This document shows positions 27,523 through 41,413 of a stretch of 47,862 nucleotides of DNA, one piece after another. How positions within the stretch are numbered: the stretch's first letter is position 1; every line of letters begins with the position of its first letter. The position numbers and the translations under genes were made by a program. The stretch lies in the sequence record OZ346152.1; one strand, given 5' to 3'. The notes under the pieces are model-generated. The model worked only from the letters and a program-made list of their open reading frames with translations. It did not search any database and was not told where the DNA came from. The stretch is from a phage.

Positions 27523-29520
27523 ATGATTCCAAATATCGAAAAACAAATATCGGCGTTAGGCGAAGCAGTAATAAAAAGCATCCAAGAGCGATTCACGGTT
27601 GGCAATATAGTGCCTTATCCTTATCAGTGCGTTGCGTATGCCGAGATCGCAAAGCGCATGAAAAACTATGAACATCCTTTCTTTGTTAAGGCTTCTGTGT
27701 CGGCTGGCAAAACATTGATGTTTGCGATGGTTGCGGCGCAATGCCGCAAAATGGGATTGAAAATGATGGTGCTTGCTCGCCAGGCTGAAATTGTTGATCA
27801 GGATTCGGAAGAGATCAGCAATCTTGGCGTGCCAAACTCAATCTATTGCGCCGGACTGAAAACAAAAAGCGCATACTTTCCGATCGTAGTCGGTTCTGAG
27901 GGCACTGTAGTAAACGGATTGTTTAAGTCGTTAGGTGATTATGTTCCGCACGTTATCGGTATTGATGAATGTCACCAGGTGGATTGGGAGGATCTCGCGG
28001 ACGCGATAGAAAATAATGAATCTTACCAGCAGATGACCACTAAGAAGGATTTGCCTGTACTGATTGGAGAAGAACAGCAATTTGATTCCAATGGCGATCC
28101 AATGTTCGGAACAGGGCGCACACAGTACACCGTAATAATCATGGAAATGATGCGCAGGTGTCGCGAGGCATACGGGCACGAATTGCGAATATTCGGTATG
28201 ACTGGATCTGAGTTTCGCGGCGTGGTTCCAATACTGGTTGAAGATAAGAACAAAAAGGGATTCTGGCGTGAGCAGGTGACTAACATAGACACAAACTACT
28301 TAATCAAATTTGGTTCGGTAGTGCCAACAAATTTCGGCGACGTAGGCGACCTGGGGTATGACCTTTCAGAGTTCGAAGCCAGTAGCGAGGATGGCGTTTC
28401 AGACTTTGACTCTAAAACATTGCGCAAGATGGAAGAAAAGATCCATCAAGACGCAACAATGACACAGAAAATCATGGCTAAAGTCCATGAGATATGCAAA
28501 GACAGGAACGGAGTTTTAGTTACATGCGCAGGGGAAAGGCACTGCAAGGAGGCCGCCGCCGCACTGCCGCCAGGCGTTGAATACAGGATCATAACTGGCA
28601 AGACTGGAGATAATCAGCGTAAAGAGTGGCTAAGGGAGGCATACGAGGGAAAAGTAAAATACATCTTCCAGGTACAGGCGCTTACCACTGGCGTTAACGT
28701 TCCGTTTTGGGATACTTCGGTAATACTGAGAAAGATAGGATCTCTAACATTGCTTATCCAGCTTTTGGGGCGCGGTATGCGACTGCTTAAGCAATGGCAC
28801 ATTGAGCAGGGATTCAAGAAAAAAGATCATCTTGTATTGGATTTTGCAGGCACTATGGATGAGTTAGGGGATTTGTATTTCGATCCAATTCTTGAGCAAG
28901 CGCAATTTCAAAAGAGATTTACAAACGGGAAAGAGCCTAAGACTTGCCCGATATGTGGAACACTAAACAGCTTTTACGCTCGCCGATGTATGCACGTAGA
29001 CGATAACGGGAAACGATGCGAGCATTTTTGGACTTACAGAATTTGCGAGGACCAGGTAGATCCGAGAACGAAAAAGATAATCAAGCGCGGTTGCGGAACA
29101 AAAAACGACGTGGTGGCGAGGGTGTGCCGTTGTTGCGATATTTCTCTTGTCGATCCTAACGAGAAGTTAAGCGGCAAGCACTACACCAAAAACGATTGGT
29201 GCAACGTTAAATCTTTCCGCGTTGATATGACGAAAAACCAAAAAGGAATTGTTTTTTGCTATGAGCTTGAGGCCAACGGCGACACGTTCAAGGCATACGA
29301 AAGATTTTTCCCTGAGTCAGAAAGCAACATTTGCCGGACGATATGGAGAAAAATAGCATTGCAGCACATACCGGATCGTAAGATTGCTGGTATGGTGGCG
29401 AGCTATAGAAATGCGCGTAAAATAATGTCATACGCTCATCACATCATGCCGCCTGTACGCGTAACGCATCGCAAAAACGGCAAAGGTGAGGATAACATTG
29501 CAAAACGGGAGTTTGTTTAA
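27523..29520 (+). CDS. SF2 helicase (DExH-type) with C-terminal zinc-ribbon region
   Basis: Walker A SAGKT, motif II IGIDECHQ, Cys-rich C-terminus (CPICG..C..C). Confidence 0.75.
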   Translation: MIPNIEKQISALGEAVIKSIQERFTVGNIVPYPYQCVAYAEIAKRMKNYEHPFFVKASVSAGKTLMFAMVAAQCRKMGLKMMVLARQAEIVDQDSEEISNLGVPNSIYCAGLKTKSAYFPIVVGSEGTVVNGLFKSLGDYVPHVIGIDECHQVDWEDLADAIENNESYQQMTTKKDLPVLIGEEQQFDSNGDPMFGTGRTQYTVIIMEMMRRCREAYGHELRIFGMTGSEFRGVVPILVEDKNKKGFWREQVTNIDTNYLIKFGSVVPTNFGDVGDLGYDLSEFEASSEDGVSDFDSKTLRKMEEKIHQDATMTQKIMAKVHEICKDRNGVLVTCAGERHCKEAAAALPPGVEYRIITGKTGDNQRKEWLREAYEGKVKYIFQVQALTTGVNVPFWDTSVILRKIGSLTLLIQLLGRGMRLLKQWHIEQGFKKKDHLVLDFAGTMDELGDLYFDPILEQAQFQKRFTNGKEPKTCPICGTLNSFYARRCMHVDDNGKRCEHFWTYRICEDQVDPRTKKIIKRGCGTKNDVVARVCRCCDISLVDPNEKLSGKHYTKNDWCNVKSFRVDMTKNQKGIVFCYELEANGDTFKAYERFFPESESNICRTIWRKIALQHIPDRKIAGMVASYRNARKIMSYAHHIMPPVRVTHRKNGKGEDNIAKREFV

Positions 29521-29939
29521 TGGCTATAACTGATAAAGGAGATTATCTTGAGTTTTACGAAAGAGATCCAACCGACACAAGAAGGGAGGTTAATCACCAG
29601 ATAGATAGTTTTCAGTGGTTGACTTATGCTCATCCTTACTTGCTGGCGTGGCATACGGTAAACGAGAATGAGAAGTCTAAAGTAACGGCTATGATTGATC
29701 AGCAGTCCGGCTTGGTTAAGGGAGTAAGCGATTTCATCATCCTGATTGGTTTAAACGGAAAATACCCCTTTGCAGCGATTGAGATCAAACGAGTGAATAA
29801 ATCAGGCAAGGGGAAAGCATCACCAGTCAGCGATGAGCAAAAGGCTTTTTTGCGTCGCGTTCGCAGCTTAGGAGGATTCGCTGCGGTAGCCTACGGATTC
29901 AATCAGTTTAAGTTGGCTATTGAATACATGCTTAAATAG
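29520..29939 (+). CDS. VRR-NUC domain nuclease
   Basis: 139 aa; D..E.K core (SDFIIL..AIEIKR); TAATG-coupled to the helicase; TAG stop inside a box. Confidence 0.55.
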   Translation: MAITDKGDYLEFYERDPTDTRREVNHQIDSFQWLTYAHPYLLAWHTVNENEKSKVTAMIDQQSGLVKGVSDFIILIGLNGKYPFAAIEIKRVNKSGKGKASPVSDEQKAFLRRVRSLGGFAAVAYGFNQFKLAIEYMLK

Positions 29940-29979
29940 CACTTTTTGTTAAAACTGGCGCAATGGATTGCGCCATAAT
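29936..29979 (+). promoter_or_regulatory. box-type promoter unit (box, N18 hairpin, CATAAT)
   Basis: Consensus box at 29936-29955; spacer TGGCGCAATGGATTGCGC is an inverted repeat; CATAAT at 29974-29979. Confidence 0.55.
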
Positions 29980-30018
29980 TCAATAACACGAGATTGCTTT
30001 TAATAGCGGAGAAATGAA

Positions 30019-30744
30019 ATGGCTAAAGATATTTTAGATAAAGACACCCATGACGCATTCGTTAGCTTTGAGCAGTTGGAGAGAGAAACGTTTATAGGGA
30101 ATGCCCTTGCAACTGGAGGCCATTACCAGGCAGTAAAGCCAAATCAATATTATAAGGTAAGCGGCAACCGATACGCTGGAAGCACCACGCCTGACGTTGT
30201 GCGCGATATGTGGAGCACGCCTCAAGAGATCGTGGAGTGGATGGAATCAGAATTTGGTGAATACGATCTCGACGCGGCAGCAAGCCAGGAAAACGCAGTT
30301 TGCGAGAAGTTCTATAGCAAGGAAACAAACTGCTTAAAGCGTTGGTGGGGTAGCAACAAGCACGTATGGCTTAACCCGCCGTACAGCAACCCAACTCCAT
30401 TTATCAAGAAAGCAATTGAGCAAATGGAGCACAACAACCAAATTGATGTTTTGTTGCCAGCCGACAACTCTACAGCATGGTTTTATGAGGCACAGAAAAA
30501 CGCGGCTGAAATCATCTGGATCACTGGCGAGGTTTACGAAGAGGGTGGAGTAGAATACTCCCGCACCGGAAGAATAGCCTTTGTGTCTGGATTGACTGGC
30601 GAGCCTGTGCAGGGCAACAATAAGGGAAGCGTGATTTTTGTCATGCGCAAACTTAAAGAAGGCGAGGAGCAGAAAACGCGATACGTTAAGATCAGCGATA
30701 TTTGCCCTTCTGTAACCGAACGCCGCGCGCGCAAACGGAGCTAA
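30019..30744 (+). CDS. dam: DNA N6-adenine methyltransferase (phage Dam-type)
   Basis: 241 aa; catalytic NPPY motif (WLNPPYS); GGAGA RBS. Confidence 0.7.
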   Translation: MAKDILDKDTHDAFVSFEQLERETFIGNALATGGHYQAVKPNQYYKVSGNRYAGSTTPDVVRDMWSTPQEIVEWMESEFGEYDLDAAASQENAVCEKFYSKETNCLKRWWGSNKHVWLNPPYSNPTPFIKKAIEQMEHNNQIDVLLPADNSTAWFYEAQKNAAEIIWITGEVYEEGGVEYSRTGRIAFVSGLTGEPVQGNNKGSVIFVMRKLKEGEEQKTRYVKISDICPSVTERRARKRS

Positions 30745-30748
30745 CACG

Positions 30749-31006
30749 ATGAAAAAAGAGAGAAGCGTTTATTTAAATGAAACTGGCGAATGGTTGTTAT
30801 TTCGCGCTATGGTGTGCGATGCACTTGATAAAAATCCTAACGTGAAAAAGATGATTGATTGCGATCCGTGGGAATTTTCAAGCGCATTAGATATGAGCTT
30901 TGAGGAGACAAGAAAACTCCCGCTTGAAAAATGGCACGAACAAATCAGAAATGACATGCAAGAGTTTGTCGATTCGTGGAATTTTCAGCACGGAATGATC
31001 CACTAA
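30749..31006 (+). CDS. hypothetical protein
   Basis: 85 aa; GGAG RBS; stop TAA-TAG merges into a box. Confidence 0.4.
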   Translation: MKKERSVYLNETGEWLLFRAMVCDALDKNPNVKKMIDCDPWEFSSALDMSFEETRKLPLEKWHEQIRNDMQEFVDSWNFQHGMIH

Positions 31007-31049
31007 TAGCACTTTTTGTTAAAACGCCCGGCCTAGTGTCGGGCATAAT
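31006..31049 (+). promoter_or_regulatory. box-type promoter unit (box, N18 hairpin GCCCGGCCTAGTGTCGGG, CATAAT)
   Basis: The whole 44-bp unit is nearly identical, in inverted orientation, to the unit at 34223-34266. Confidence 0.55.
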
Positions 31050-31081
31050 TATTTCAACGAAGCAAACATGAGGAAATAAAA

Positions 31082-31261
31082 ATGGTGGTATTCGATAAAC
31101 GCGCTTTTAATCTTGCTCAAGAAGTAGCAAAAGGTTCAGTAGAGGGCGGTTCAAAGGAAGGATTCCAGTTTGATTGGGGCATCGCGATGTTTTTACTGAA
31201 AGTTGCATACGGTCACGCGCCAATTGAACAAGCGGAGACATATTATAAGCATGAAGGTTGA
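31082..31261 (+). CDS. hypothetical small protein (59 aa, below the track cutoff)
   Basis: ATG with GAGGAAA RBS about 30 nt downstream of the box promoter; ORF translated by hand. Confidence 0.3.
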   Translation: MVVFDKRAFNLAQEVAKGSVEGGSKEGFQFDWGIAMFLLKVAYGHAPIEQAETYYKHEG

Positions 31262-31493
31262 GCAAGGAAGAGATGCAGTATGGAATCACGCTAAAGAATG
31301 CGGAATAGCCGACGATATAAAGAAGATCGCGCAATACTTTGATATTGCAGATGTGAGCATAATTAGCGGCGACAAGATGACTTTCCTCAAGGAAAGGCCG
31401 CGAAAAATGGTAAGAGTTCCAGCAGTTCCAACAAAAATTGATTTCAAAGAGGCAATGGCTAAAATCCGAGAGCCTCGCAAATATTATAAATGA
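31251..31493 (+). CDS. hypothetical protein
   Basis: 80 aa from the first ATG of track ORF 31203..31493; overlaps the preceding small ORF. Confidence 0.3.
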   Translation: MKVEQGRDAVWNHAKECGIADDIKKIAQYFDIADVSIISGDKMTFLKERPRKMVRVPAVPTKIDFKEAMAKIREPRKYYK

Positions 31494-31587
31494 GGATAGT
31501 TATCATGTGGCGCTTGTTTGTTCTACCGTTACCCGTTATCATCGCTGTTACAGTTATGTACCATATAGTGATGAGATAGGTAGCAGA

Positions 31588-32703
31588 ATGAAAAATGTAA
31601 AAATTACAGATGAGCAATTCAAGATCGAACGGGCGGCAGGTAAGACATATAAACAGATCGCTCAAGAGTACGGAATGAATGTGAGAAGCGTCGAGCGTCG
31701 CGCGGCGCGTCTTGCAAAGCAAGGGCAGTTATCGACCATCGGGGCGCCTGGTTTTGGTGTTCATGGTGAGTCAGTAATGACTGACAAAGAAGGAAATATA
31801 ATCCTCAAGTGGACCAAAACCAGCAAGGATAAAGAGCAATTAGAGGCACTGATGCGCGCAGCAATGGAGGCATTTAGCGAGGAAGTGCCGCGATTAGATC
31901 CAGTTCCATTGCAGGAGCGTAACTATAATGAAACGCTTTCATTGTATCCGATCTTTGACATGCACTTAGGCGCTATGGCCCATAAGCACGAATGCGGCGA
32001 AAATTGGGATACTGCGACGGCAGAGCGCGTTATGAATAACTTTATCGACTATGCTTTGATGTGCGCACCGGACAGCGAAAAGGCTGTTATCCTGATTGGT
32101 GGCGATATGCTGCATAGCGACGGCCTGGAGGCGGTGACACCTGCAAGCGGTCACGTACTTGATCAAGATAGCCGATATGCAAAATTGGTTTACGTTGCAA
32201 TACGTGCAGTGCGCCGCGCAATTAATAAAATGCTGTTAAAGCATAAACATGTTGAGGTCCAGGTCGTAGAGGGTAATCACGACCAATCAGGAATGATTTG
32301 GCTACGCGCAGCAATGGCGGCAGCATATGAGAACGAGCCGCGCGTTTACGTTGATGTTTCTCCTCGCGTTGTTCACCACACGCAATACGGAAAAACTTTC
32401 CTTGCGTACCATCACGGGCACACAGTGCGCAAACCTGAGACTTTGCTAATGATGTGCGCGTCAGATTGGCGGGAGGACTTCGGAAACTCAAAAACTATGT
32501 ATGCGCACGTAGGGCACTGGCATCACCAGACTGTGACGGAAACGTCGCTTGGCATCGTTGAGGTGCATAGCACCCTGGCGGCAAAAGACGCATACGCCGC
32601 GCGCGGTGGCTGGAGATCTCGACGCCGTGCAGCGGTTATCATTTACGACAAAGAGCATGGAGAAGTGGGGCGATTTGTTCACTATCCAGAAATGATGAAT
32701 TGA
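31588..32703 (+). CDS. metallophosphoesterase (calcineurin / SbcD-Mre11-like) with N-terminal sigma-region-4-like HTH
   Basis: Motifs DMH, GGDMLHSD, GNHD, GHWHH; N-terminal TYKQIAQEYGMNVRSVERRAARLAKQ; first ATG of the frame (track start 31438 is TTG). Confidence 0.55.
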   Translation: MKNVKITDEQFKIERAAGKTYKQIAQEYGMNVRSVERRAARLAKQGQLSTIGAPGFGVHGESVMTDKEGNIILKWTKTSKDKEQLEALMRAAMEAFSEEVPRLDPVPLQERNYNETLSLYPIFDMHLGAMAHKHECGENWDTATAERVMNNFIDYALMCAPDSEKAVILIGGDMLHSDGLEAVTPASGHVLDQDSRYAKLVYVAIRAVRRAINKMLLKHKHVEVQVVEGNHDQSGMIWLRAAMAAAYENEPRVYVDVSPRVVHHTQYGKTFLAYHHGHTVRKPETLLMMCASDWREDFGNSKTMYAHVGHWHHQTVTETSLGIVEVHSTLAAKDAYAARGGWRSRRRAAVIIYDKEHGEVGRFVHYPEMMN

Positions 32704-32749
32704 TGAATTTTTATTTAAATCAATGACAAATTAAATCAAAAACTTGCAA

Positions 32750-32779
32750 AGGGGCGGCGTTTGTCGCCTCTTTTTTTTG
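32750..32779 (+). terminator. rho-independent terminator (moderate)
   Basis: AGGGGCG..CGCCTCT stem with one G-T pair followed by an 8-nt T-run. Confidence 0.45.
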
Positions 32780-32848
32780 TTTAATTTTTTACCATGTAAG
32801 TTTATCATTCGGTCAATATATTGACTTTAATTAATATGGAGAATAAAA

Positions 32849-33064
32849 ATGAAAGATTTTATTAACGCAGCTACCGCCGGATCTGGCGGTTCATCTATCG
32901 CAAGCGCAGCTACAGGGCAGTTAACCATTGCTATTGCCAGCTTTGTTTTAATGGCTGCATTCGGTGCATGGGGCGCTTACCTTCGCTGGCGTGATAGTAA
33001 AAAATTCCACGAGGCGATCGAAAAAGGTGATATTCAAAAAGCTATTGAAATCAGGGGCAAGTAA
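32849..33064 (+). CDS. holin (pinholin-like)
   Basis: 71 aa; weakly hydrophobic Gly/Ala/Ser-rich first segment then a hydrophobic second TMD and charged C-terminus; directly upstream of the endolysin. Confidence 0.55.
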
Positions 33065-33555
33065 TGAGCATAAAGAACAAGGTAGCGGCTGCGGCCTTTG
33101 GCGTTGCGGTTGCCTTGACTTCTCCACTTCTTGAAGAGATCGAAGGGGTAAGATACAAGCCATACAAAGATATTGCGGGAGTATGGACTGTTTGCGCAGG
33201 AATAACCGGACCAGATGTTATCCTGGGGAAAACGTACACTAAAAAAGAGTGTGATGCTTTGTTGGCTAAACATATCCAGGTTGCTAAAAAAGAAGTTGAC
33301 AAGCAAGTTAAGGTTGACATTCCTGATAGTATGCGTGCAGCAATGTACTCATTCACTTATAATGCAGGAGTTGGAGCTTTCAGAAATTCAACAATGCTGA
33401 AACTCATCAACCAGGGGAAATTAAACGAGGCTTGCGATCAGCTTTATCGTTGGACGTATTACCATAACCCCAAAACAGGAAAGCGCGAGAAGTCTAAAGG
33501 CTTACTTAACAGGCGCAAGGTCGAATACAAATATTGCACAATGGATCTGAAATGA
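33064..33555 (+). CDS. SAR endolysin (GH24 lysozyme)
   Basis: N-terminal signal-anchor-release-like segment ([15 protein letters not shown]) then lysozyme E..D..T catalytic arrangement ([26 protein letters not shown]). Confidence 0.75.
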
Positions 33556-33947
33556 TGAAGAAATTTTTACTTACACCAATCGCAATGGCGGTGATCTTGT
33601 CTGGATGTTCAAGCGTTACGCCACTGACCGGATTAATCGGCAGTAAGCCGGAAATAACAGCACAGGCTGGCGCGGAGAACGTGAAGCAGACAGTTGGCAT
33701 TACAGCAAAGCAGGACGCCAGCACAAAACAGAAAACCACAATAAAGGAATCTGCGGTTGACAAGGTGGACACGTCCAGCAAGAAGGATTTCACAACATCA
33801 ACCATTCAGGCCAATACCATCAAGGCAGACAAAATTCAGGTCGTGCAGGGTAATAACGGCAGATGGTACGATCCAGTAATCATATGCGTGGTTGTGTTAA
33901 TTGTGCTGATTTGTCTTTACTGGAGAGAAAAGAAAAAGGAGGCTTAA
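33552..33947 (+). CDS. unimolecular spanin (T1 gp11-type)
   Basis: Lipoprotein signal with lipobox LSGC at the N-terminus and a single C-terminal TMD ([16 protein letters not shown]); overlaps the endolysin stop. Confidence 0.7.
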
Positions 33948-33965
33948 TGCCTCCTTTATTTTTAT
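33938..33965. terminator. bidirectional terminator
   Basis: GGAGGC-TTAAT-GCCTCC hairpin with T-rich runs on both strands, between convergent genes. Confidence 0.55.
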
Positions 33966-34186
33966 GCGTCGGGCCACATATGAGTTTCGTTTGTTGGCTT
34001 GTTCGATTCGTCGTACTGCCTTACTTCAATGCTGAAAGTGTCGCCGTACAGTTCTGCAATCTTGCGCTCATTTTCAACCGCCGATTGCTCACTCCATCCA
34101 AAATCCCTGTCGTAAATTGTCGGGATTTCAGCAGAAGATCCGTTGTCATGATTATATACGCGAACTACTAAAAACTTGCTGGACAT
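33962..34186 (-). CDS. hypothetical protein (acidic)
   Basis: 74 aa; AAGG RBS; driven by the box promoter at 34223-34266. Confidence 0.4.
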   Translation of the reverse strand: MSSKFLVVRVYNHDNGSSAEIPTIYDRDFGWSEQSAVENERKIAELYGDTFSIEVRQYDESNKPTNETHMWPDA

Positions 34187-34222
34187 AATTTTACCTTTTG
34201 GTTGTTTCGTTTCGATGAAACA

Positions 34223-34266
34223 AATATACCCGACACTAGGCCGGGCGTTTTAACAAAAAATGCTAT
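34223..34266 (-). promoter_or_regulatory. box-type promoter unit (box, N18 hairpin, TATATT), inverted copy of the 31006 unit
   Basis: Minus strand ATAGCATTTTTTGTTAAAAC, GCCCGGCCTAGTGTCGGG, TATATT. Confidence 0.55.
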
Positions 34267-34457
34267 TCCATACGCTTTACCGTAACCAGTAATACACCAT
34301 CATCATTGCATAAAACATGTTCAGTGGTGCTAAAAGCGCGCATATCTGAATAAAGTAGCGTAAGTAAAGCATGAATAAAATCCTCATGTGATATTGAATT
34401 TACGGCGCAGTGCTTCAAGATCTTGTCTATTAGCTTTTGCCTGGAACAATTCATCAT
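34263..34457 (-). CDS. hypothetical protein (overlaps the 3' end of the 34384 gene out of frame)
   Basis: 64 aa; GGGGAG RBS; TAG stop inside the box; real status uncertain. Confidence 0.25.
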   Translation of the reverse strand: MMNCSRQKLIDKILKHCAVNSISHEDFIHALLTLLYSDMRAFSTTEHVLCNDDGVLLVTVKRME

Positions 34458-34779
34458 CGCCCATCTCCCCTATTCTCGCCATATCCCTGATCCAGTCGTT
34501 GCGCATACCATCCAGGCTATACAATTCGAATCCGAAAGGCCGCTTTGACGATCCTTTGGACCAGTATTTTCCGCAGACCCCATCTATATAACCAGCCGTC
34601 ATCATTCTTGCGCAAAATTCCTTAGATGCAAGGCTGGCGAACATTCGCGGCGTAAGTCCGGCGGCCCGTGCGAGCCGCTCACATTCTCTATGCTGATAGA
34701 TAAATTTGGCTATGTGCTGCCTGTTAAACCAGTCGTATGACTCACACCATTTATACAGATCAAGCAAAAACATAATCAT
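34384..34779 (-). CDS. hypothetical protein
   Basis: 131 aa; ATGA overlap with the upstream ATPase gene. Confidence 0.4.
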   Translation of the reverse strand: MIMFLLDLYKWCESYDWFNRQHIAKFIYQHRECERLARAAGLTPRMFASLASKEFCARMMTAGYIDGVCGKYWSKGSSKRPFGFELYSLDGMRNDWIRDMARIGEMGDDELFQAKANRQDLEALRRKFNIT

Positions 34780-36356
34780 CCCAGCAGTATTGGATTGACA
34801 AAAATAACACCATTAATCACACAAACATAATTTCTTTCTTCCAGCATTGGCAGCAAGTGCCCTTCTATCCTCTTCATTACGCCAGCCTGACCAACGAAAG
34901 GTTTTACCTTTCTCGCCGATTCGTACAGGGCGCGAATATTCAGGATACCTTTGTTAGCCTTGCCGTGCCTCGTGATCAATTCAATCAATTTACCCATTTC
35001 AGCATCATCACCAGCATAACCAGAAGCATTGGCGGCGCTAATGTATGTTTTGCTCAATTCCTGAAACATGATCAACGCCTCTTGCATTGTTTCCACGTCG
35101 ATCTCTTTCGACTTCTGCGGGTATCCGGCAGGATTAAACCAGTTACGGATAACATGCAGGACGGAAGCAAGCCTGATCACCTGTTTATCCATTTTACCCA
35201 GCGCACCGCGTAACATTGTATGAGAATACTTTCCGCCGTCTGCAAGATGCGGTTCCATATCCTGGCGAGCAATGTTGAGCACTCGCATAGCTGAGCGGCT
35301 TATTTTCAGCGATATATTTGATTCGCTCATGATGTTATGCACCAATTGATAATATTGGGCTTTCAATTCAGAATCCACCGCCTCATAGGTAGAATCACCA
35401 TTTTCATCAATGAATGAGCGACGGCCTAAGAATGATTCTTCGCGGACCAACAAAAAGCGCTCACTCACACCGATACCGCGCGATCCAGCGTCCATGATAC
35501 CGCTTATCGTTTCATCCTGTGCTATAACGCTCATGCATCCAAGCGCGCGAAAACTCATATTATTGTCAGCATTAGCACGGGCAATTGATACGTGACCATT
35601 ATCCCACGCCTTAAGCACTAGCTCACTGTTAGTCTTCCTTTCGCTATTTGCATAGGTCAAGCCTAACAGGCTATTAATACTTGTTGCTTCGTCAGATATT
35701 ACGGCAAAGTTACCTTGCTTGTTGTTGATTTTCGCCAAGCCTTCTGGAGTTGTATCTGAAACAGGAAAAGTTATATCACACATTTTTTCCAGCTTTTCCT
35801 CCAGATCCTCTTTTTCCTGGTATAGAGATTCCATATCAGCGCCGGATCTTTCGCTTTTCATCTCCTTTGCAAGACCTGCCAGCTTTGCCTGTATTTTCTT
35901 TCTTTCCTTGCGGCGTTGCTCGTTGATCTTCTCAACTTCCGCAATCATCGGAGCAATAGCCATACTGTTGATCGCAGATTTACCAGTTGACGGCGGCTGG
36001 CTTGTAACGACGTAAAGCGCAGTCGGCTGATCGGTTCCGTGATAGTCAACCGTAAAGCGTCCAAGCATAGCGGCAGAAATGCAGCCGATAAAGTGCATGT
36101 AAGCCGATGATTCAGGGAATTGAACGGATCGCGCAATGCTGCGTGATAACTTGCCTACAACATCAATATCATTACCAAGAGAAATAACGGGGTAGCGATC
36201 GTGACCGCTATTCACATCCTTTACGTCGCCCCAAAAGCTGGACGACTGGCGATAGCCGTTAGCCTGAATTGATACGCGAACTGGCGAAAGGTTCTGGCTT
36301 TCAGCCATAGCGATTATTTGCTGTGGAGTTAATTTGTTCGTTTCTAATGAAAACAT
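34776..36356 (-). CDS. P-loop NTPase of unknown role (possible replication/recombination ATPase)
   Basis: 526 aa; Walker A-like PPSTGKS and Walker B-like FAVISDEATS; AAGGAG RBS. Confidence 0.4.
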   Translation of the reverse strand: MFSLETNKLTPQQIIAMAESQNLSPVRVSIQANGYRQSSSFWGDVKDVNSGHDRYPVISLGNDIDVVGKLSRSIARSVQFPESSAYMHFIGCISAAMLGRFTVDYHGTDQPTALYVVTSQPPSTGKSAINSMAIAPMIAEVEKINEQRRKERKKIQAKLAGLAKEMKSERSGADMESLYQEKEDLEEKLEKMCDITFPVSDTTPEGLAKINNKQGNFAVISDEATSINSLLGLTYANSERKTNSELVLKAWDNGHVSIARANADNNMSFRALGCMSVIAQDETISGIMDAGSRGIGVSERFLLVREESFLGRRSFIDENGDSTYEAVDSELKAQYYQLVHNIMSESNISLKISRSAMRVLNIARQDMEPHLADGGKYSHTMLRGALGKMDKQVIRLASVLHVIRNWFNPAGYPQKSKEIDVETMQEALIMFQELSKTYISAANASGYAGDDAEMGKLIELITRHGKANKGILNIRALYESARKVKPFVGQAGVMKRIEGHLLPMLEERNYVCVINGVIFVNPILLG

Positions 36357-36384
36357 TCGTTAGCTTCTCCTTTGTGGGCCGTAA

Positions 36385-36428
36385 ATTTTAACGGCCCAAT
36401 ACTACCCCGTTTTGTCAAAAAGTGCTAT
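36385..36428 (-). promoter_or_regulatory. box-type promoter unit (box variant with GACAAAAC, N18, TAAAAT)
   Basis: Minus strand ATAGCACTTTTTGACAAAAC, 18 nt, TAAAAT; GGGCCGT..ACGGCCC dyad spans the -10. Confidence 0.5.
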
Positions 36429-36646
36429 TTGATCCGCTCTATTGCAACCAGAAGTCGATCAGGCTGGCGGTCGCTGTAGCATTCTCCTGTAATCCCATCC
36501 TTAAACGTAAAGTAAAGCGCCTTATGATATGAAAAACCAATCAGCCAACCTACCGCCGTTTTTTTGATGGGCCTGACTATATCGCCAGGCTTGAAAGTCT
36601 TTGTGGTAGAATGCGTTACTTTGTAACGGTTTTCACTGTTTATCAC
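36425..36646 (-). CDS. hypothetical protein (GTG start)
   Basis: 73 aa; GTG start preceded by GAGGG and overlapping the upstream stop; TAG stop inside the box. Confidence 0.35.
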   Translation of the reverse strand: MINSENRYKVTHSTTKTFKPGDIVRPIKKTAVGWLIGFSYHKALYFTFKDGITGECYSDRQPDRLLVAIERIK

Positions 36647-37029
36647 AGATATTTTCCCTCAAAAAGATAACAGCCGCCAGCAGAGAATCCGACCTCTTCA
36701 CGGTACAGGTTCCAGCGGTCGCCGCACTCATCAAAAACATAACCCGCAACGCTTCCAAGCGGTCGCCCTTTCTCGATCTGGTATCGCTTGCCCTGCTTAA
36801 AGTGCTTTTTGCACGGCATGTTATGATCTACAAACGTGCAAAGAACGGTTTTTGTGTTAATGGCGCGGTAATCATCTCGGTTTGCTGGAAGCCAGCGGCT
36901 ACCCTTAACAAGCGTCTTAACTTGGAACTCTTCCACCTCGATCACATCATTACTTCCTGCAATCTTCTGATAAACCGTTTTAAAACGGCCTTTCATCAAT
37001 ACGTTGGTTTCATTACAGATAACATTCAT
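36643..37029 (-). CDS. hypothetical protein
   Basis: 128 aa; AAGGAG RBS; several Cys/His residues. Confidence 0.4.
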   Translation of the reverse strand: MNVICNETNVLMKGRFKTVYQKIAGSNDVIEVEEFQVKTLVKGSRWLPANRDDYRAINTKTVLCTFVDHNMPCKKHFKQGKRYQIEKGRPLGSVAGYVFDECGDRWNLYREEVGFSAGGCYLFEGKYL

Positions 37030-37058
37030 GATCAGATCTCCTTTGTTTGTTCGATGTG

Positions 37059-37102
37059 ATTATGCCAGGTTTTTACACCTGGCTTTTAACAAAAAGTGCT
37101 AT
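37059..37102 (-). promoter_or_regulatory. box-type promoter unit (box, palindromic N18 CCAGGTGTAAAAACCTGG, CATAAT)
   Basis: Perfect box core on the minus strand; 18-nt hairpin spacer; CATAAT. Confidence 0.55.
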
Positions 37103-37809
37103 TTTGAGTTTGACTCAAAGACGGCGCGAGCAAAGCCGCGCGGAGTGAGGGAGCGGATCATCTTTGTGCGCGATGACTTGCCGCCAGTTTTGGCCCATCC
37201 TGGATTATCTTTGTCTTCCTCTTTCGGCAGGATTAAAGCGCGTGGAGGAATAACAAAGCCGTTGCCAGTCCAGAGGCACGTTTTCTTAAAGTAGCGATCC
37301 CGCGCCGGAATAATATCAGGGAAGTCGGGATGTTTATCATCTTCCGGCAGATAGCCAGCGTAATCGCACGGATGGAACGTATAATCAGGCTTTCGCCATA
37401 ACGTTGACAACTTGCCAACCGGATTTTCGATCATGTAAGGAACACCGAAATAATCAGCTATATCAGCCGCGATCCTGCAAGTGTCGGCGGCCTCATCCTG
37501 GAACGATGGATTCTCAAGGCGTTTTTTGGCCCAATGGCGAGATCCGCTATTTGCAAGGTCGGTGCATGGTGGAAATGCCATAATAAAGTCAGGAATGCCC
37601 CATTCCTCCCAGCGCGCGCGGTGGTAAAATCTTTCATCAATCCAGACGTTAACGTATTCGATATTCTCATGCTGTATGCGCACTGACTGGTAATCACCGT
37701 GATCGCCGCCGTCAGCATTAAAGCAAATGCACTTATAGCCATTATCAGCCCAATCTTTAACGGCTTTACCAGATCCATCAAATAGGGAGAATATTAAACC
37801 TTTATACAT
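37099..37809 (-). CDS. DNA C5-cytosine methyltransferase-like protein (small Dcm-type)
   Basis: 236 aa from ATG at 37809 with GAGG RBS; motif I-like FSLFDGSG, motif IV-like PPCTDLANSG, motif VI-like IENPVG; TAG stop inside the box. Confidence 0.55.
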   Translation of the reverse strand: MYKGLIFSLFDGSGKAVKDWADNGYKCICFNADGGDHGDYQSVRIQHENIEYVNVWIDERFYHRARWEEWGIPDFIMAFPPCTDLANSGSRHWAKKRLENPSFQDEAADTCRIAADIADYFGVPYMIENPVGKLSTLWRKPDYTFHPCDYAGYLPEDDKHPDFPDIIPARDRYFKKTCLWTGNGFVIPPRALILPKEEDKDNPGWAKTGGKSSRTKMIRSLTPRGFARAVFESNSK

Positions 37810-37819
37810 CGTAATTACC

Positions 37820-38044
37820 TCAAAACGGAAAACAGCGCGCACAACCAGGATCGAAATCGCATCCACAATCATTAACAATCATGGTGGGATCTGCAAATAT
37901 TGCGCTTGATTCAAGATCCATATCCATATCACCTAAAGCCTCATCAAGAGTCTTAATTTTATATGCCACTTCAAGCGCTGCCTCTTTATTTAGTCCGGCA
38001 TCTTCTGCCATTTGAAGGCGTTCAAAAAATCCGTCTTGACTCAT
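37820..38044 (-). CDS. small acidic protein with C-terminal Cys cluster
   Basis: 74 aa, Asp/Glu-rich, CGCDFDPGCARC near the C-terminus; AAGGAG RBS inside the upstream peptide ORF. Confidence 0.4.
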   Translation of the reverse strand: MSQDGFFERLQMAEDAGLNKEAALEVAYKIKTLDEALGDMDMDLESSAIFADPTMIVNDCGCDFDPGCARCFPF

Positions 38045-38157
38045 CGCATAATCTCCTTAATAACAACCAAGATAATAGCCAGGCCAGCAGCAGTAACCAA
38101 AAAGCCAGCCGCGCCAATAATCGAATAAAAAAAGAAATCAATAGCTTTATCCATCAT
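38041..38157 (-). CDS. small hydrophobic peptide (38 aa, single predicted TMD)
   Basis: MMDKAIDFFFYSIIGAAGFLVTAAGLAIILVVIKEIMR; GAGGTG RBS; stop overlaps the next ATG; below the track cutoff. Confidence 0.3.
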   Translation of the reverse strand: MMDKAIDFFFYSIIGAAGFLVTAAGLAIILVVIKEIMR

Positions 38158-38199
38158 TTTTCACCTCATTTAAAAGGCGGCAAAACGCCGCCAGATTAA

Positions 38200-38427
38200 T
38201 TAAAGAGCGCGCCAACTTTGAATATAGAAAGCGTTTTCTTCCAGTAATTCTTTTACCTGATCTTTATTGTATTTGCGCACCTTGCCGCCTGGATGGATGC
38301 CAATAAGATAGCCGCCTTTGCCCTCGGTGATAGTGATTTGGCTAATTCCGCAAGACTTATCAAGTTTTACAGCCACGCGGTGATGAGCGTCAATAGTTGC
38401 CATAATGTTTAAAACTTTTGCTTTCAT
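38200..38427 (-). CDS. hypothetical protein
   Basis: 75 aa; GAGGA RBS. Confidence 0.4.
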   Translation of the reverse strand: MKAKVLNIMATIDAHHRVAVKLDKSCGISQITITEGKGGYLIGIHPGGKVRKYNKDQVKELLEENAFYIQSWRAL

Positions 38428-38535
38428 TTAAATATCCTCAATTGAAATATGAATGACGTGGCGCTCTTTTCCCGTCGCCGCCGTAATGGTCATTTGCAAC
38501 CGCCACCATCCAGGTATTTTTGAAAATAAATAGCA

Positions 38536-38748
38536 TCATTTCTTATTTTTCATCTTAAATTTATGGCCTGGAACACCAGCGCCAATATAGCCATCGTTGT
38601 ATTCCATTAAATAAAGGTGAAGACCATTGTCTGAAATTACATGGGGATCTTCTTTGAGATTTCCCATTAGTGGATATTCTTTTCCGCGCGTAAATCTCCA
38701 AGTTGAGTTATAAGTTTCTACGCATTTAAGTTTTAATTGCTTTGCCAT
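38536..38748 (-). CDS. hypothetical protein
   Basis: 70 aa; TAATG-coupled to the upstream gene. Confidence 0.4.
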   Translation of the reverse strand: MAKQLKLKCVETYNSTWRFTRGKEYPLMGNLKEDPHVISDNGLHLYLMEYNDGYIGAGVPGHKFKMKNKK

Positions 38749-40752: not shown

Positions 40753-40786
40753 TGCTATCTCCTGAGCGGTTCGTTTTGATGTGTGT

Positions 40787-40830
40787 AATGTACCCGATCA
40801 GACGGCCTGAGTTTTAACAAAAAGTGCTAT
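40787..40830 (-). promoter_or_regulatory. box-type promoter unit (perfect box, N18, TACATT) for the leftward early block
   Basis: Minus strand ATAGCACTTTTTGTTAAAAC, TCAGGCCGTCTGATCGGG, TACATT, 34 nt before the ATG at 40752. Confidence 0.55.
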
Positions 40831-40860
40831 TTGACGGTTAGCACCAGGATTGTGATCGAA

Positions 40861-40949
40861 ATAATCAAAAGTAATCATTCGTAATCAAATCACGTCAAAA
40901 TGATGATTTCCTTTGCAAATTTGATGAGAAAAGTAATCACGTTTAATCA
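40861..40949. repeat. iteron-like array: five copies of (A/G/T)TAATCA with 10-bp phasing
   Basis: Copies starting at 40861, 40871, 40881, 40933 and 40943 in the divergent control region. Confidence 0.45.
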
Positions 40950-41139
40950 TTGGTTGCAGGGGAGATAGTGAAACCTTCCCCTCTTGCCTCACTTTTCCGC
41001 CTGGCTGTCAGTGGTTGTTGTCTTTTGTTCACCCCTGTTACCGATTTCAGGCGGCGTGTTTCCGCGCGGTTTTCCGGTGTAGCGAAAACGGAAAAAACAA
41101 AAAAAATCCTATATAATACATTGAAAATAAAGATTATTT

Positions 41140-41320
41140 ATTTATATATATCTATAATGTTTTCTTTTTGTTCTCACTGTTACAGTGCTTTTTGTTGGTT
41201 ATGGTGTGGTTGTGTGTGGGTATATATGGATAGTTGCGCGCGCTGCGGATTGCATATGTATATATACTTTTTCCGGCGGATTGCGTTAACAGCGTGAACA
41301 GAAAAATAACAGCCCTGAAA
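41140..41320. repeat. AT-rich intergenic element B, paralogous to 20870-21050
   Basis: Same ordered blocks as element A; an estimated 65-70% identity by eye. Confidence 0.6.
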
Positions 41321-41385
41321 TCAACAACTTGCGCATGATTTTGTAGTTTTTCGATATTGGTAACGTTTTGAATACAACAAAAACA

Positions 41386-41413
41386 TTGACACGCACCAAA
41401 TAGCTTTTATAAT
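41386..41413 (+). promoter_or_regulatory. sigma70-type promoter (TTGACA, 16 nt, TATAAT)
   Basis: Consensus -35 at 41386-41391 and consensus -10 at 41408-41413; about 30 nt upstream of the 41445 ATG. Confidence 0.6.

Follow-up and report, generated by a model that had tools for sequence, protein, structure and literature searches.

Dam-like and Dcm-like DNA methyltransferase genes are routinely annotated in phages of the family Drexlerviridae; the finding is already known, and close homologues have been characterised. Here we describe the pair present in a stretch of phage DNA of 47,862 nucleotides (sequence record OZ346152.1, analysed at its full length and called the window below): dam, encoding a T1-type phage N6-adenine DNA methyltransferase of 241 amino acids (aa; 30019-30744, plus strand), and a gene for a compact, Dcm-like C5-cytosine DNA methyltransferase of 236 aa (37099-37809, minus strand). 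For the first, the reference is the Dam of phage T1: DpnI still cleaves T1 DNA from a dam- host, a CRISPR-made deletion of the phage dam gene abolishes this and gives sensitivity to MboI, so that gene deletion has shown its product to be G6mATC (methylated at N6 of the adenine), and host Dam alone modifies T1 DNA only partially (PMC10470545).

For the second, the closest described enzyme is the Dcm of phage KarlJaspers (Bas06, Drexlerviridae, Hanrivervirus), whose strain K42 was used in a preprint on retron Ec86. All four K42 mutants escaping this defence (4/4) were hit in the 711-bp dcm gene, two of them by a base change 9 nt upstream of its start, and K42 Dcm expressed alone was toxic only in cells carrying the retron. 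By LC-MS (liquid chromatography coupled to mass spectrometry), 5-methylcytosine (5mC) in the multicopy single-stranded DNA (msDNA) of the retron was high with the wild-type enzyme and low with a C82A/E128A/K175A/K176A mutant or an empty vector; the defence was lost when CCTGG in the msDNA stem was changed to AATGG, ACTGG or CATGG; and 34 of 35 Ec86-sensitive phages encoded the C5 enzyme. A 2026 paper cites the activation of the retron, there named Eco1, by a phage DNA cytosine methyltransferase as established. Two further phages of the Drexlerviridae are relevant, both reported to have virion DNA that resists EcoRII and hence is methylated in the manner of Dcm: AAS23, whose gp52 methylase was recognised by HHpred only, and KP36, with 155 sites, for which the authors stated in 2013 that a cytosine methylase gene was absent and credited the host.

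Two orphan methylases in a T1-like phage genome

The 8.7-kb stretch around both genes matches its 25 best-matching Escherichia phages over its full length with 96.5-98.2% identity. Among these are MikeNSara, tiwna, tonijn and FritzSarasin (Bas04), the last of them classified as Drexlerviridae, Tempevirinae, Warwickvirus. To judge from this near-identity to Warwickvirus-type phages, the window represents most of the genome of a T1-like virulent siphovirus (Drexlerviridae, Warwickvirus). An earlier reading of the bare sequence, referred to here as the original prediction, had proposed two orphan DNA methyltransferases of different classes, one N6-adenine enzyme of Dam type and one of C5-cytosine type, and this is borne out: both reading frames are present at the coordinates given there, and no restriction endonuclease gene was found adjoining either of them. 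Around them lie genes for a VRR-NUC-like nuclease, a helicase and an exonuclease, besides others for small proteins without a known function. Since no endonuclease gene accompanies them, both methylases are orphans. The treatment of positions 30019-37809 as one unit, by contrast, cannot be kept, as dam lies on the plus strand and the C5 gene on the minus strand, with the exonuclease gene, the lysis cassette and the helicase gene between them.

By its sequence, the protein encoded at 30019-30744 is an ordinary member of the phage Dam family. It matches PF05869 (E=9.8e-62, 208 bits, cutoff 28.1), the equivalog TIGR01712 'phage N-6-adenine-methyltransferase' (181 bits, cutoff 97) and PHROG 111, and carries the predicted NPPY catalytic motif (motif IV) at residues 119-122 (30373-30384, plus strand), which is also found in the Dam proteins of T1 and KarlJaspers. 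Identity is 84% to KarlJaspers Dam and 66% to T1 Dam (M.EcoT1Dam, YP_003925). The enzyme shares with T1 Dam its length class (241 versus 237 aa), the NPPY motif and the position of the gene, the order helicase, VRR-NUC-like gene, dam being common to both phages; the only difference is sequence divergence, the N-terminal 23 residues failing to align. A specificity for GATC is thus to be expected of the enzyme studied here.

A compact C5 enzyme that escapes standard profiles

The C5 protein belongs to a large family for which Pfam and NCBIfam have no profile: a search of both with the open reading frame (ORF) gave no match even at E<=1, and a sequence search of the PDB returned only marginal matches, to DNMT3B and M.HaeIII. 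PHROG 757, 'DNA methyltransferase', is matched at E=2e-84. It had been foreseen that a failure to match methyltransferase profiles would speak against the C5 assignment; formally this is what happens with Pfam, but the PHROG match, the fold and the conservation described below overturn it. A word-indexed search gave 3,033 relatives; among the 120 listed, almost every one has a length of 225-262 aa, and none has a precomputed Pfam domain. An exhaustive profile search gave 2,097 clusters at 50% identity with E<=0.001, 941 of them with E<=1e-10, and the complete members are almost all of 205-260 aa. With tblastn, the gene was found in 1,499 deposited phage records, of which 1,466 cover at least 80% of it; the carriers include T1-like phages, Klebsiella Webervirus, Dhillonvirus, Kagunavirus, rV5-like, PVP-SE1-like and some T4-like phages. 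The enzyme is unusually short, as had been noticed, and, lacking a Pfam or NCBIfam profile, its family is missed by standard searches. KP36 is a case in point: once reported without a cytosine methylase, it has a full-length homologue of the compact enzyme with 47.5% identity (NC_029099, 47558-48244).

Conservation was assessed in 60 diverse relatives that are 35-56% identical to the C5 protein, and motifs were placed by the hhalign register against E. coli Dcm together with a local alignment of RSLTPRG to RRLTPRE; the hhalign comparison of the C5 family with the single Dcm sequence has negligible probability and served solely for placing motifs. Motif I, the putative S-adenosylmethionine (SAM) binding site, is FDGSG (residues 10-14, 37768-37782, minus strand, as for all motifs of this gene), which aligns with FAGIGG of E. 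coli Dcm and, in DNMT3B and M.HaeIII, with the region of motif I. Motif IV is PPC (residues 80-82, 37564-37572), with the predicted catalytic Cys82 in 60/60 relatives. Motif VI is ENP, the equivalent of ENV (residues 128-130, 37420-37428), aligned with LENV of E. coli Dcm; Glu128 is present in all 60 relatives and Asn129 and Pro130 in at least 58. Motif IX is RSLTPRG (residues 219-225, 37135-37155), in which Arg219, Pro223 and Gly225 each occur in 95% or more of the relatives. The positions never changed in the 60 sequences are Cys82, Gly89, Glu128, Pro147, Tyr173, Trp180 and Pro188, while Lys175, Thr177, Asn129, Pro130 and Arg219 each reach 95% conservation or more. All three motifs named in the original prediction (an FxGxG-like motif I, PPC and an ENP/ENV-like motif) were thus found, and their conservation shows that they are not there by chance.

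Two motifs appear not to be canonical. In the expected place of motif VIII (QxRxR) stands FKKTC, with Lys175-Lys176 (37282-37287) where the arginines would be and Lys175 in 59 of 60 relatives; in the retron Ec86 preprint, a structural alignment with DNMT3A led to these two lysines being named as substrate-binding. Past motif IX the protein has 11 more residues, and there is no GN(A/S)V motif X in it, Asn234 being the only candidate. PF00145 itself gives a weak match in 5 of the 60 relatives (E=0.0039 at best) and is the only Pfam family to recur among them. At the motif II position, residue 31 (37717-37719), 56 of the 60 have Asp, whereas Asn is found here, in the 19 closest aligned relatives and in KarlJaspers Dcm.

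An AlphaFold model built from a 20-sequence alignment is confident (predicted local distance difference test, pLDDT, 85.4; predicted template modelling score, pTM, 0.85), with residues 85-88, right after the catalytic Cys, as its only disordered part. In fold comparisons the model is closest to C5 DNA-cytosine enzymes; Foldseek ranks DNMT3A first, and Dnmt2 structures are among the matches. The protein is accordingly modelled with the fold of a C5 DNA methyltransferase. The likeness to the catalytic domains of DNMT3A and DNMT3B is one of structure at 13% identity, and these eukaryotic, CpG-specific enzymes work as DNMT3A/3L or 3A/3B oligomers.

Compared with E. coli Dcm, an enzyme of the M.EcoRII type (PF00145) with the presumed target CCWGG in common, the phage enzyme has motifs I, IV, VI and IX in the order found there and would share its chemistry, and differs in the following: (i) Outside the motifs the two sequences are not significantly similar (hhalign gives a probability of about 1% or less); the phage enzyme is not derived from the host dcm gene. 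(ii) E. coli Dcm has the RxR of motif VIII and the GN(A/S)V of motif X, whereas the phage enzyme has KK in the expected place of the former and no GN(A/S)V. (iii) The spacing of the catalytic core is normal, motifs I, IV, VI and VIII starting at residues 10, 80, 128 and 174 in the phage enzyme and at 93, 175, 224 and 274 in Dcm, but motif IX starts at 219 versus 400 and the last residue is 236 versus 472. The savings in size lie in the lack of a 92-residue N-terminal extension, in the distance between motifs VIII and IX (45 versus 126 residues) and in the tail after motif IX (17 versus 72 residues, counted from the start of the motif). (iv) The target-recognition segment would comprise some 35 residues (183-217, of lower AlphaFold confidence), against about 115 in E. 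coli Dcm. The original prediction had seen no recognisable target-recognition domain: it was right in that the domain is very small, yet a segment of about 35 residues does lie between motifs VIII and IX.

KarlJaspers has the same C5 gene in the same neighbourhood. Its Dcm is 91% identical to the protein studied here, without gaps, and only 3 of the 22 substitutions fall in residues 121-236, so that they lie nearly all in the N-terminal half; the 711-bp gene and Cys82, Glu128, Lys175 and Lys176 are all shared, and the phages differ in genus (Hanrivervirus versus Warwickvirus). Enzymatic activity has been shown in the literature for close homologues, and by analogy the protein studied here is likely to produce 5mC. 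The specificity and even the activity of the C5 enzyme had been called open; the doubt about activity does not stand, as the K42 enzyme makes 5mC on msDNA, while the doubt about specificity does.

GATC and CCWGG are kept in a genome swept of other sites

Site counts in the window were compared with expectations from base composition and from a Markov model. GATC occurs 287 times (182 expected by composition, 289 by the Markov model) and CCWGG 113 times (67 and 120), whereas CCSGG is found only 6 times (55 and 22) and is the most depleted of the 32 five-base quasi-palindromes. Furthermore, 24 of the 64 six-base palindromes are absent, AAGCTT, CTGCAG, GGATCC and GATATC among them. Because CCSGG and these palindromes have been purged while GATC and CCWGG have been kept, restriction sites have been swept from the genome, apart from the two motifs that its methylases should cover. 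CCNGG is cut by enzymes of the SsoII/Ecl18kI type, and the retention of CCWGG with the loss of CCSGG would fit an enzyme that discriminates W from S in a phage exposed to such CCNGG cutters. T1, which has Dam and was verified to be without a C5 homologue, differs in having CCSGG at normal frequency (65 sites), only 11 of the 64 six-base palindromes absent and CCWGG at 1.17 times expectation, versus 1.69 times in the window.

Among 54 T1-like loci of IMG/VR anchored on Dam, the close relatives of this phage have CCWGG at about 1.6-2.0 times and CCSGG at about 0.03-0.14 times expectation, and the Klebsiella-type relatives keep both. The idea that C5-less phages avoid CCWGG was set aside with these loci as confounded, most of those scored as lacking the C5 gene ending before its expected position and T1 being the one verified absence. 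Two Dam-encoding contigs of the set contain a single CCWGG each: IMGVR_UViG_3300048920_000084 (L039), which also has a single CCSGG, and L059, which is also poor in GATC; real avoidance and a sequencing artefact are both possible.

Shigella phage 2019SD1 (Hanrivervirus, NC_049820) looked like a case of natural CCWGG avoidance, having no CCWGG in the 50 kb examined, a C5 gene that looked broken and truncated, and a helicase gene that is scrambled. Aligned with KarlJaspers, it has all 36 of 36 CCWGG sites replaced, by CC-GG, CCGTG, CCSGG, CACGG and the like, with frameshifts in many cases. Nanopore reads of native DNA were the sole input to this assembly (Albacore 2.3.1 and Canu), and basecallers of that generation are documented to go wrong at Dcm-5mC sites, which accounted for about 70% of the consensus errors in a benchmark on Klebsiella. 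Because of the nanopore-only assembly and these documented miscalls we reject 2019SD1 as an example of avoidance: its pattern is a basecalling artefact at methylated CCWGG, and its frameshifted genes are probably artefacts as well. The same pattern indicates that essentially every CCWGG was modified in the virion DNA of this phage, a member of KarlJaspers's genus, by the phage enzyme or that of its host.

A proposed self-protection and its alternatives

We consider it very probable that the orphan Dam and the compact C5 enzyme mark the phage's own replicating DNA, at GATC and, most likely, at CCWGG, and would thus put on it the two commonest enterobacterial methylation patterns. Dam would transfer a methyl group from SAM to N6 of the adenine in GATC. 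In the C5 enzyme, Cys82 of the PPC motif would attack C6 of a flipped-out cytosine, Glu128 of ENP would hold the base, and the methyl group would go to C5; the target, most likely the inner cytosine of CCWGG, would be read by the region of about 35 residues between motifs VIII and IX. The benefit would be a complete methylation of fast-replicating DNA, where host Dam and Dcm lag or where the hosts are dam- or dcm-. DNA so methylated would be guarded against restriction enzymes that cut GATC and CCWGG/CCNGG, while sites that neither enzyme can methylate would have been removed from the phage genome instead. Self-protection against restriction is the best-supported role, since sites have been purged throughout the genome and host Dam acts on T1 only in part, and an anti-restriction benefit may be supposed for both methylases.

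This benefit would come at a cost. The enzyme of a relative methylates the msDNA of retron Ec86/Eco1 and thereby sets off an abortive-infection defence, so the C5 gene appears double-edged, probably guarding CCWGG sites and yet triggering Eco1. The original prediction that orphan methylases of this kind usually protect against restriction is plausible for these two, but the BASEL study saw no simple relation between these methylase genes and restriction resistance.

That result from BASEL is one of several that weigh against the proposal; the others mainly concern the C5 target. In the K42 study, CCWGG was taken from the name 'Dcm' and the methylated sites were never mapped. E. coli MG1655 is dcm+ (b1961), and according to the preprint Ec86 is silent and msDNA 5mC low in this strain without the phage enzyme, which is odd if host and phage enzymes do exactly the same; dosage or access could account for it, and so could a differing substrate preference. 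Host Dcm could be the cause both of the EcoRII resistance of phage DNA and of the nanopore miscalls. The retention of GATC and CCWGG is weak evidence, as the host genome is rich in both motifs too, and T1, with no C5 gene, still has CCWGG above expectation. CCWGG is therefore put forward as the probable, and not the demonstrated, target of the C5 protein.

A main role other than protection, with both methylases active, is an alternative of rather low probability. By holding phage DNA in a fully methylated state the enzymes would let the phage escape host processes of the MutH/SeqA type, or they would time replication, packaging or gene expression. The absence of a gene-resistance pattern in BASEL, where most Drexlerviridae were very sensitive to restriction, would agree with this, as would the fact that K-12 hosts already carry Dam and Dcm. 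However, the strong purge of other palindromic sites means that restriction pressure has shaped the genome, the two unpurged motifs are exactly those that the enzymes should cover, and in early work T1 is reported to elude host restriction. Self-protection by DNA marking is therefore preferred.

The oddity of Ec86 in MG1655 leads to the question of how the C5 enzyme recognises its target. We give a similarly low probability to the idea that the compact family represents a minimal C5 methyltransferase architecture with a mode of recognition differing from that of host Dcm; the enzyme might, for example, work as a dimer on a palindrome, or take hairpin or single-stranded substrates. If true, this could explain why Ec86 is triggered in dcm+ K-12 by the phage enzyme and not by host Dcm. 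The more specific alternative to a CCWGG mark, that of an active methyltransferase recognising a shorter or overlapping motif, the outer cytosine, or hairpin or single-stranded DNA, is unlikely. It would be in keeping with a variable region less than a third as long as that of E. coli Dcm, with the lack of a detectable sequence relationship to Dcm beyond the core motifs, with the quiet of Ec86 in dcm+ MG1655 until the phage enzyme is expressed and with the unmapped specificity of the K42 enzyme. Against it stand the msDNA experiments, in which CCTGG with either C mutated no longer triggers the defence, the EcoRII resistance of KP36 and AAS23 and the miscalling of 36/36 aligned CCWGG sites in 2019SD1. 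The purge of CCSGG with retention of CCWGG fits a discrimination of W from S. Finally, McrBC of K-12 cuts 5mC that is preceded by a purine, and relatives of this phage were isolated on K-12, where a mark in such contexts would have exposed them to cleavage.

That the C5-like protein is no DNA methyltransferase in vivo, being an inactive relic, a DNA-binding decoy or a Dnmt2-like RNA m5C enzyme, is very improbable. The missing Pfam and NCBIfam matches, Asn31 in a motif II where most relatives have Asp, the non-canonical motifs VIII and X and the Dnmt2 structures among the fold matches could be read in this way, but the catalytic Cys and Glu never vary within the family, Asn31 also occurs in KarlJaspers Dcm, the K42 version of which acts on DNA, and the gene is intact in the 1,466 phage records mentioned above. 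Least credible of all is the addition of a larger group, for instance 5-carboxymethylcytosine as made by CmoX (PDB 8yf3) with carboxy-SAM (Cx-SAM) from the host: E. coli does make Cx-SAM, and CmoX works in E. coli without phage CmoA, but CmoX is defined by SPPC and an Arg (Arg350, which binds the carboxyl of Cx-SAM) replacing Asn304 of M.HhaI and its gene adjoins cmoA and an amide ligase gene, whereas the protein studied here has FPPC, the ending ...FESNSK, which has Asn234 (conserved in 47 of the 60 relatives) and no Arg at that position, and small proteins of unknown function as its immediate neighbours, and the product of the K42 enzyme was 5mC by LC-MS.

Gene starts, transcription and other features of the window

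The C5 ORF lies where it had been predicted and is on the minus strand. The start giving 236 aa is supported by a well-spaced Shine-Dalgarno sequence, GAGG (37818-37821, minus strand), which overlaps the stop codon of the upstream ORF, by the N-termini of the aligned family members and by KarlJaspers, whose gene (711 bp) begins at the same place and is preceded by the same overlap of Shine-Dalgarno sequence and stop codon. A longer reading from TTG at 37878 (259 aa) would overlap the upstream gene. Annotations of this start vary, with 774 bp in FritzSarasin, 257 aa in cluster P0001 and 711 bp in KarlJaspers. The base change of the two K42 escape mutants would, by its position, fall in the GAGG. 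Taken together, the Shine-Dalgarno sequence, the family alignment and the escape mutation favour the 711-bp gene.

The C5 gene starts 10 nt past the stop of a 74-aa ORF, which is coupled to a 38-aa ORF that begins right after a terminator-like hairpin; because of this close spacing and coupling, the C5 gene lies inside a leftward polycistron. The 38-aa ORF (38042-38158, minus strand) encodes a hydrophobic peptide, MMDKAIDFFFYSIIGAAGFLVTAAGLAIILVVIKEIMR, its stop overlaps the start of the next gene, and it matches an annotated 117-bp gene in FritzSarasin; the hairpin before it is GC-rich (38176-38192, minus strand). Both methylase genes had been thought to stand each behind a box promoter. A scan of 29400-38600 for the sigma-70 consensus does not support this: it gave 16 sites, versus 16.9 in shuffled sequences, with none upstream of either gene and none in the 79-nt spacer before dam. 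That spacer does hold a hairpin with an 8-bp stem, GGCGCAAT-GG-ATTGCGCC (29957-29974, plus strand), between the VRR-NUC-like ORF and dam, and in T1 a rho-independent terminator has been annotated at the corresponding place. The VRR-NUC-like nuclease gene directly upstream of dam (139 aa, 29520-29939, plus strand, PHROG 824) occupies the same place in T1 and KarlJaspers, and RefSeq relatives annotate it as VRR-NUC.

Scans of the window found no tRNA genes and no Rfam matches. An identical 18-nt hairpin, GCCCGGCCTAGTGTCGGG, occurs twice, at 31026-31043 (plus strand) and 34229-34246 (minus strand), each time just downstream of a gene; 0.05 matches would be expected by chance, and T1 has an annotated terminator at the first position. 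Further along, a non-coding stretch of about 650 nt (40753-41411) separates the leftward from the rightward gene clusters. Several GTAATCA repeats and runs rich in AT occur in it, along with a perfect TTGACA-16-TATAAT promoter (41386-41413, plus strand); this stretch may be an early control or origin region.

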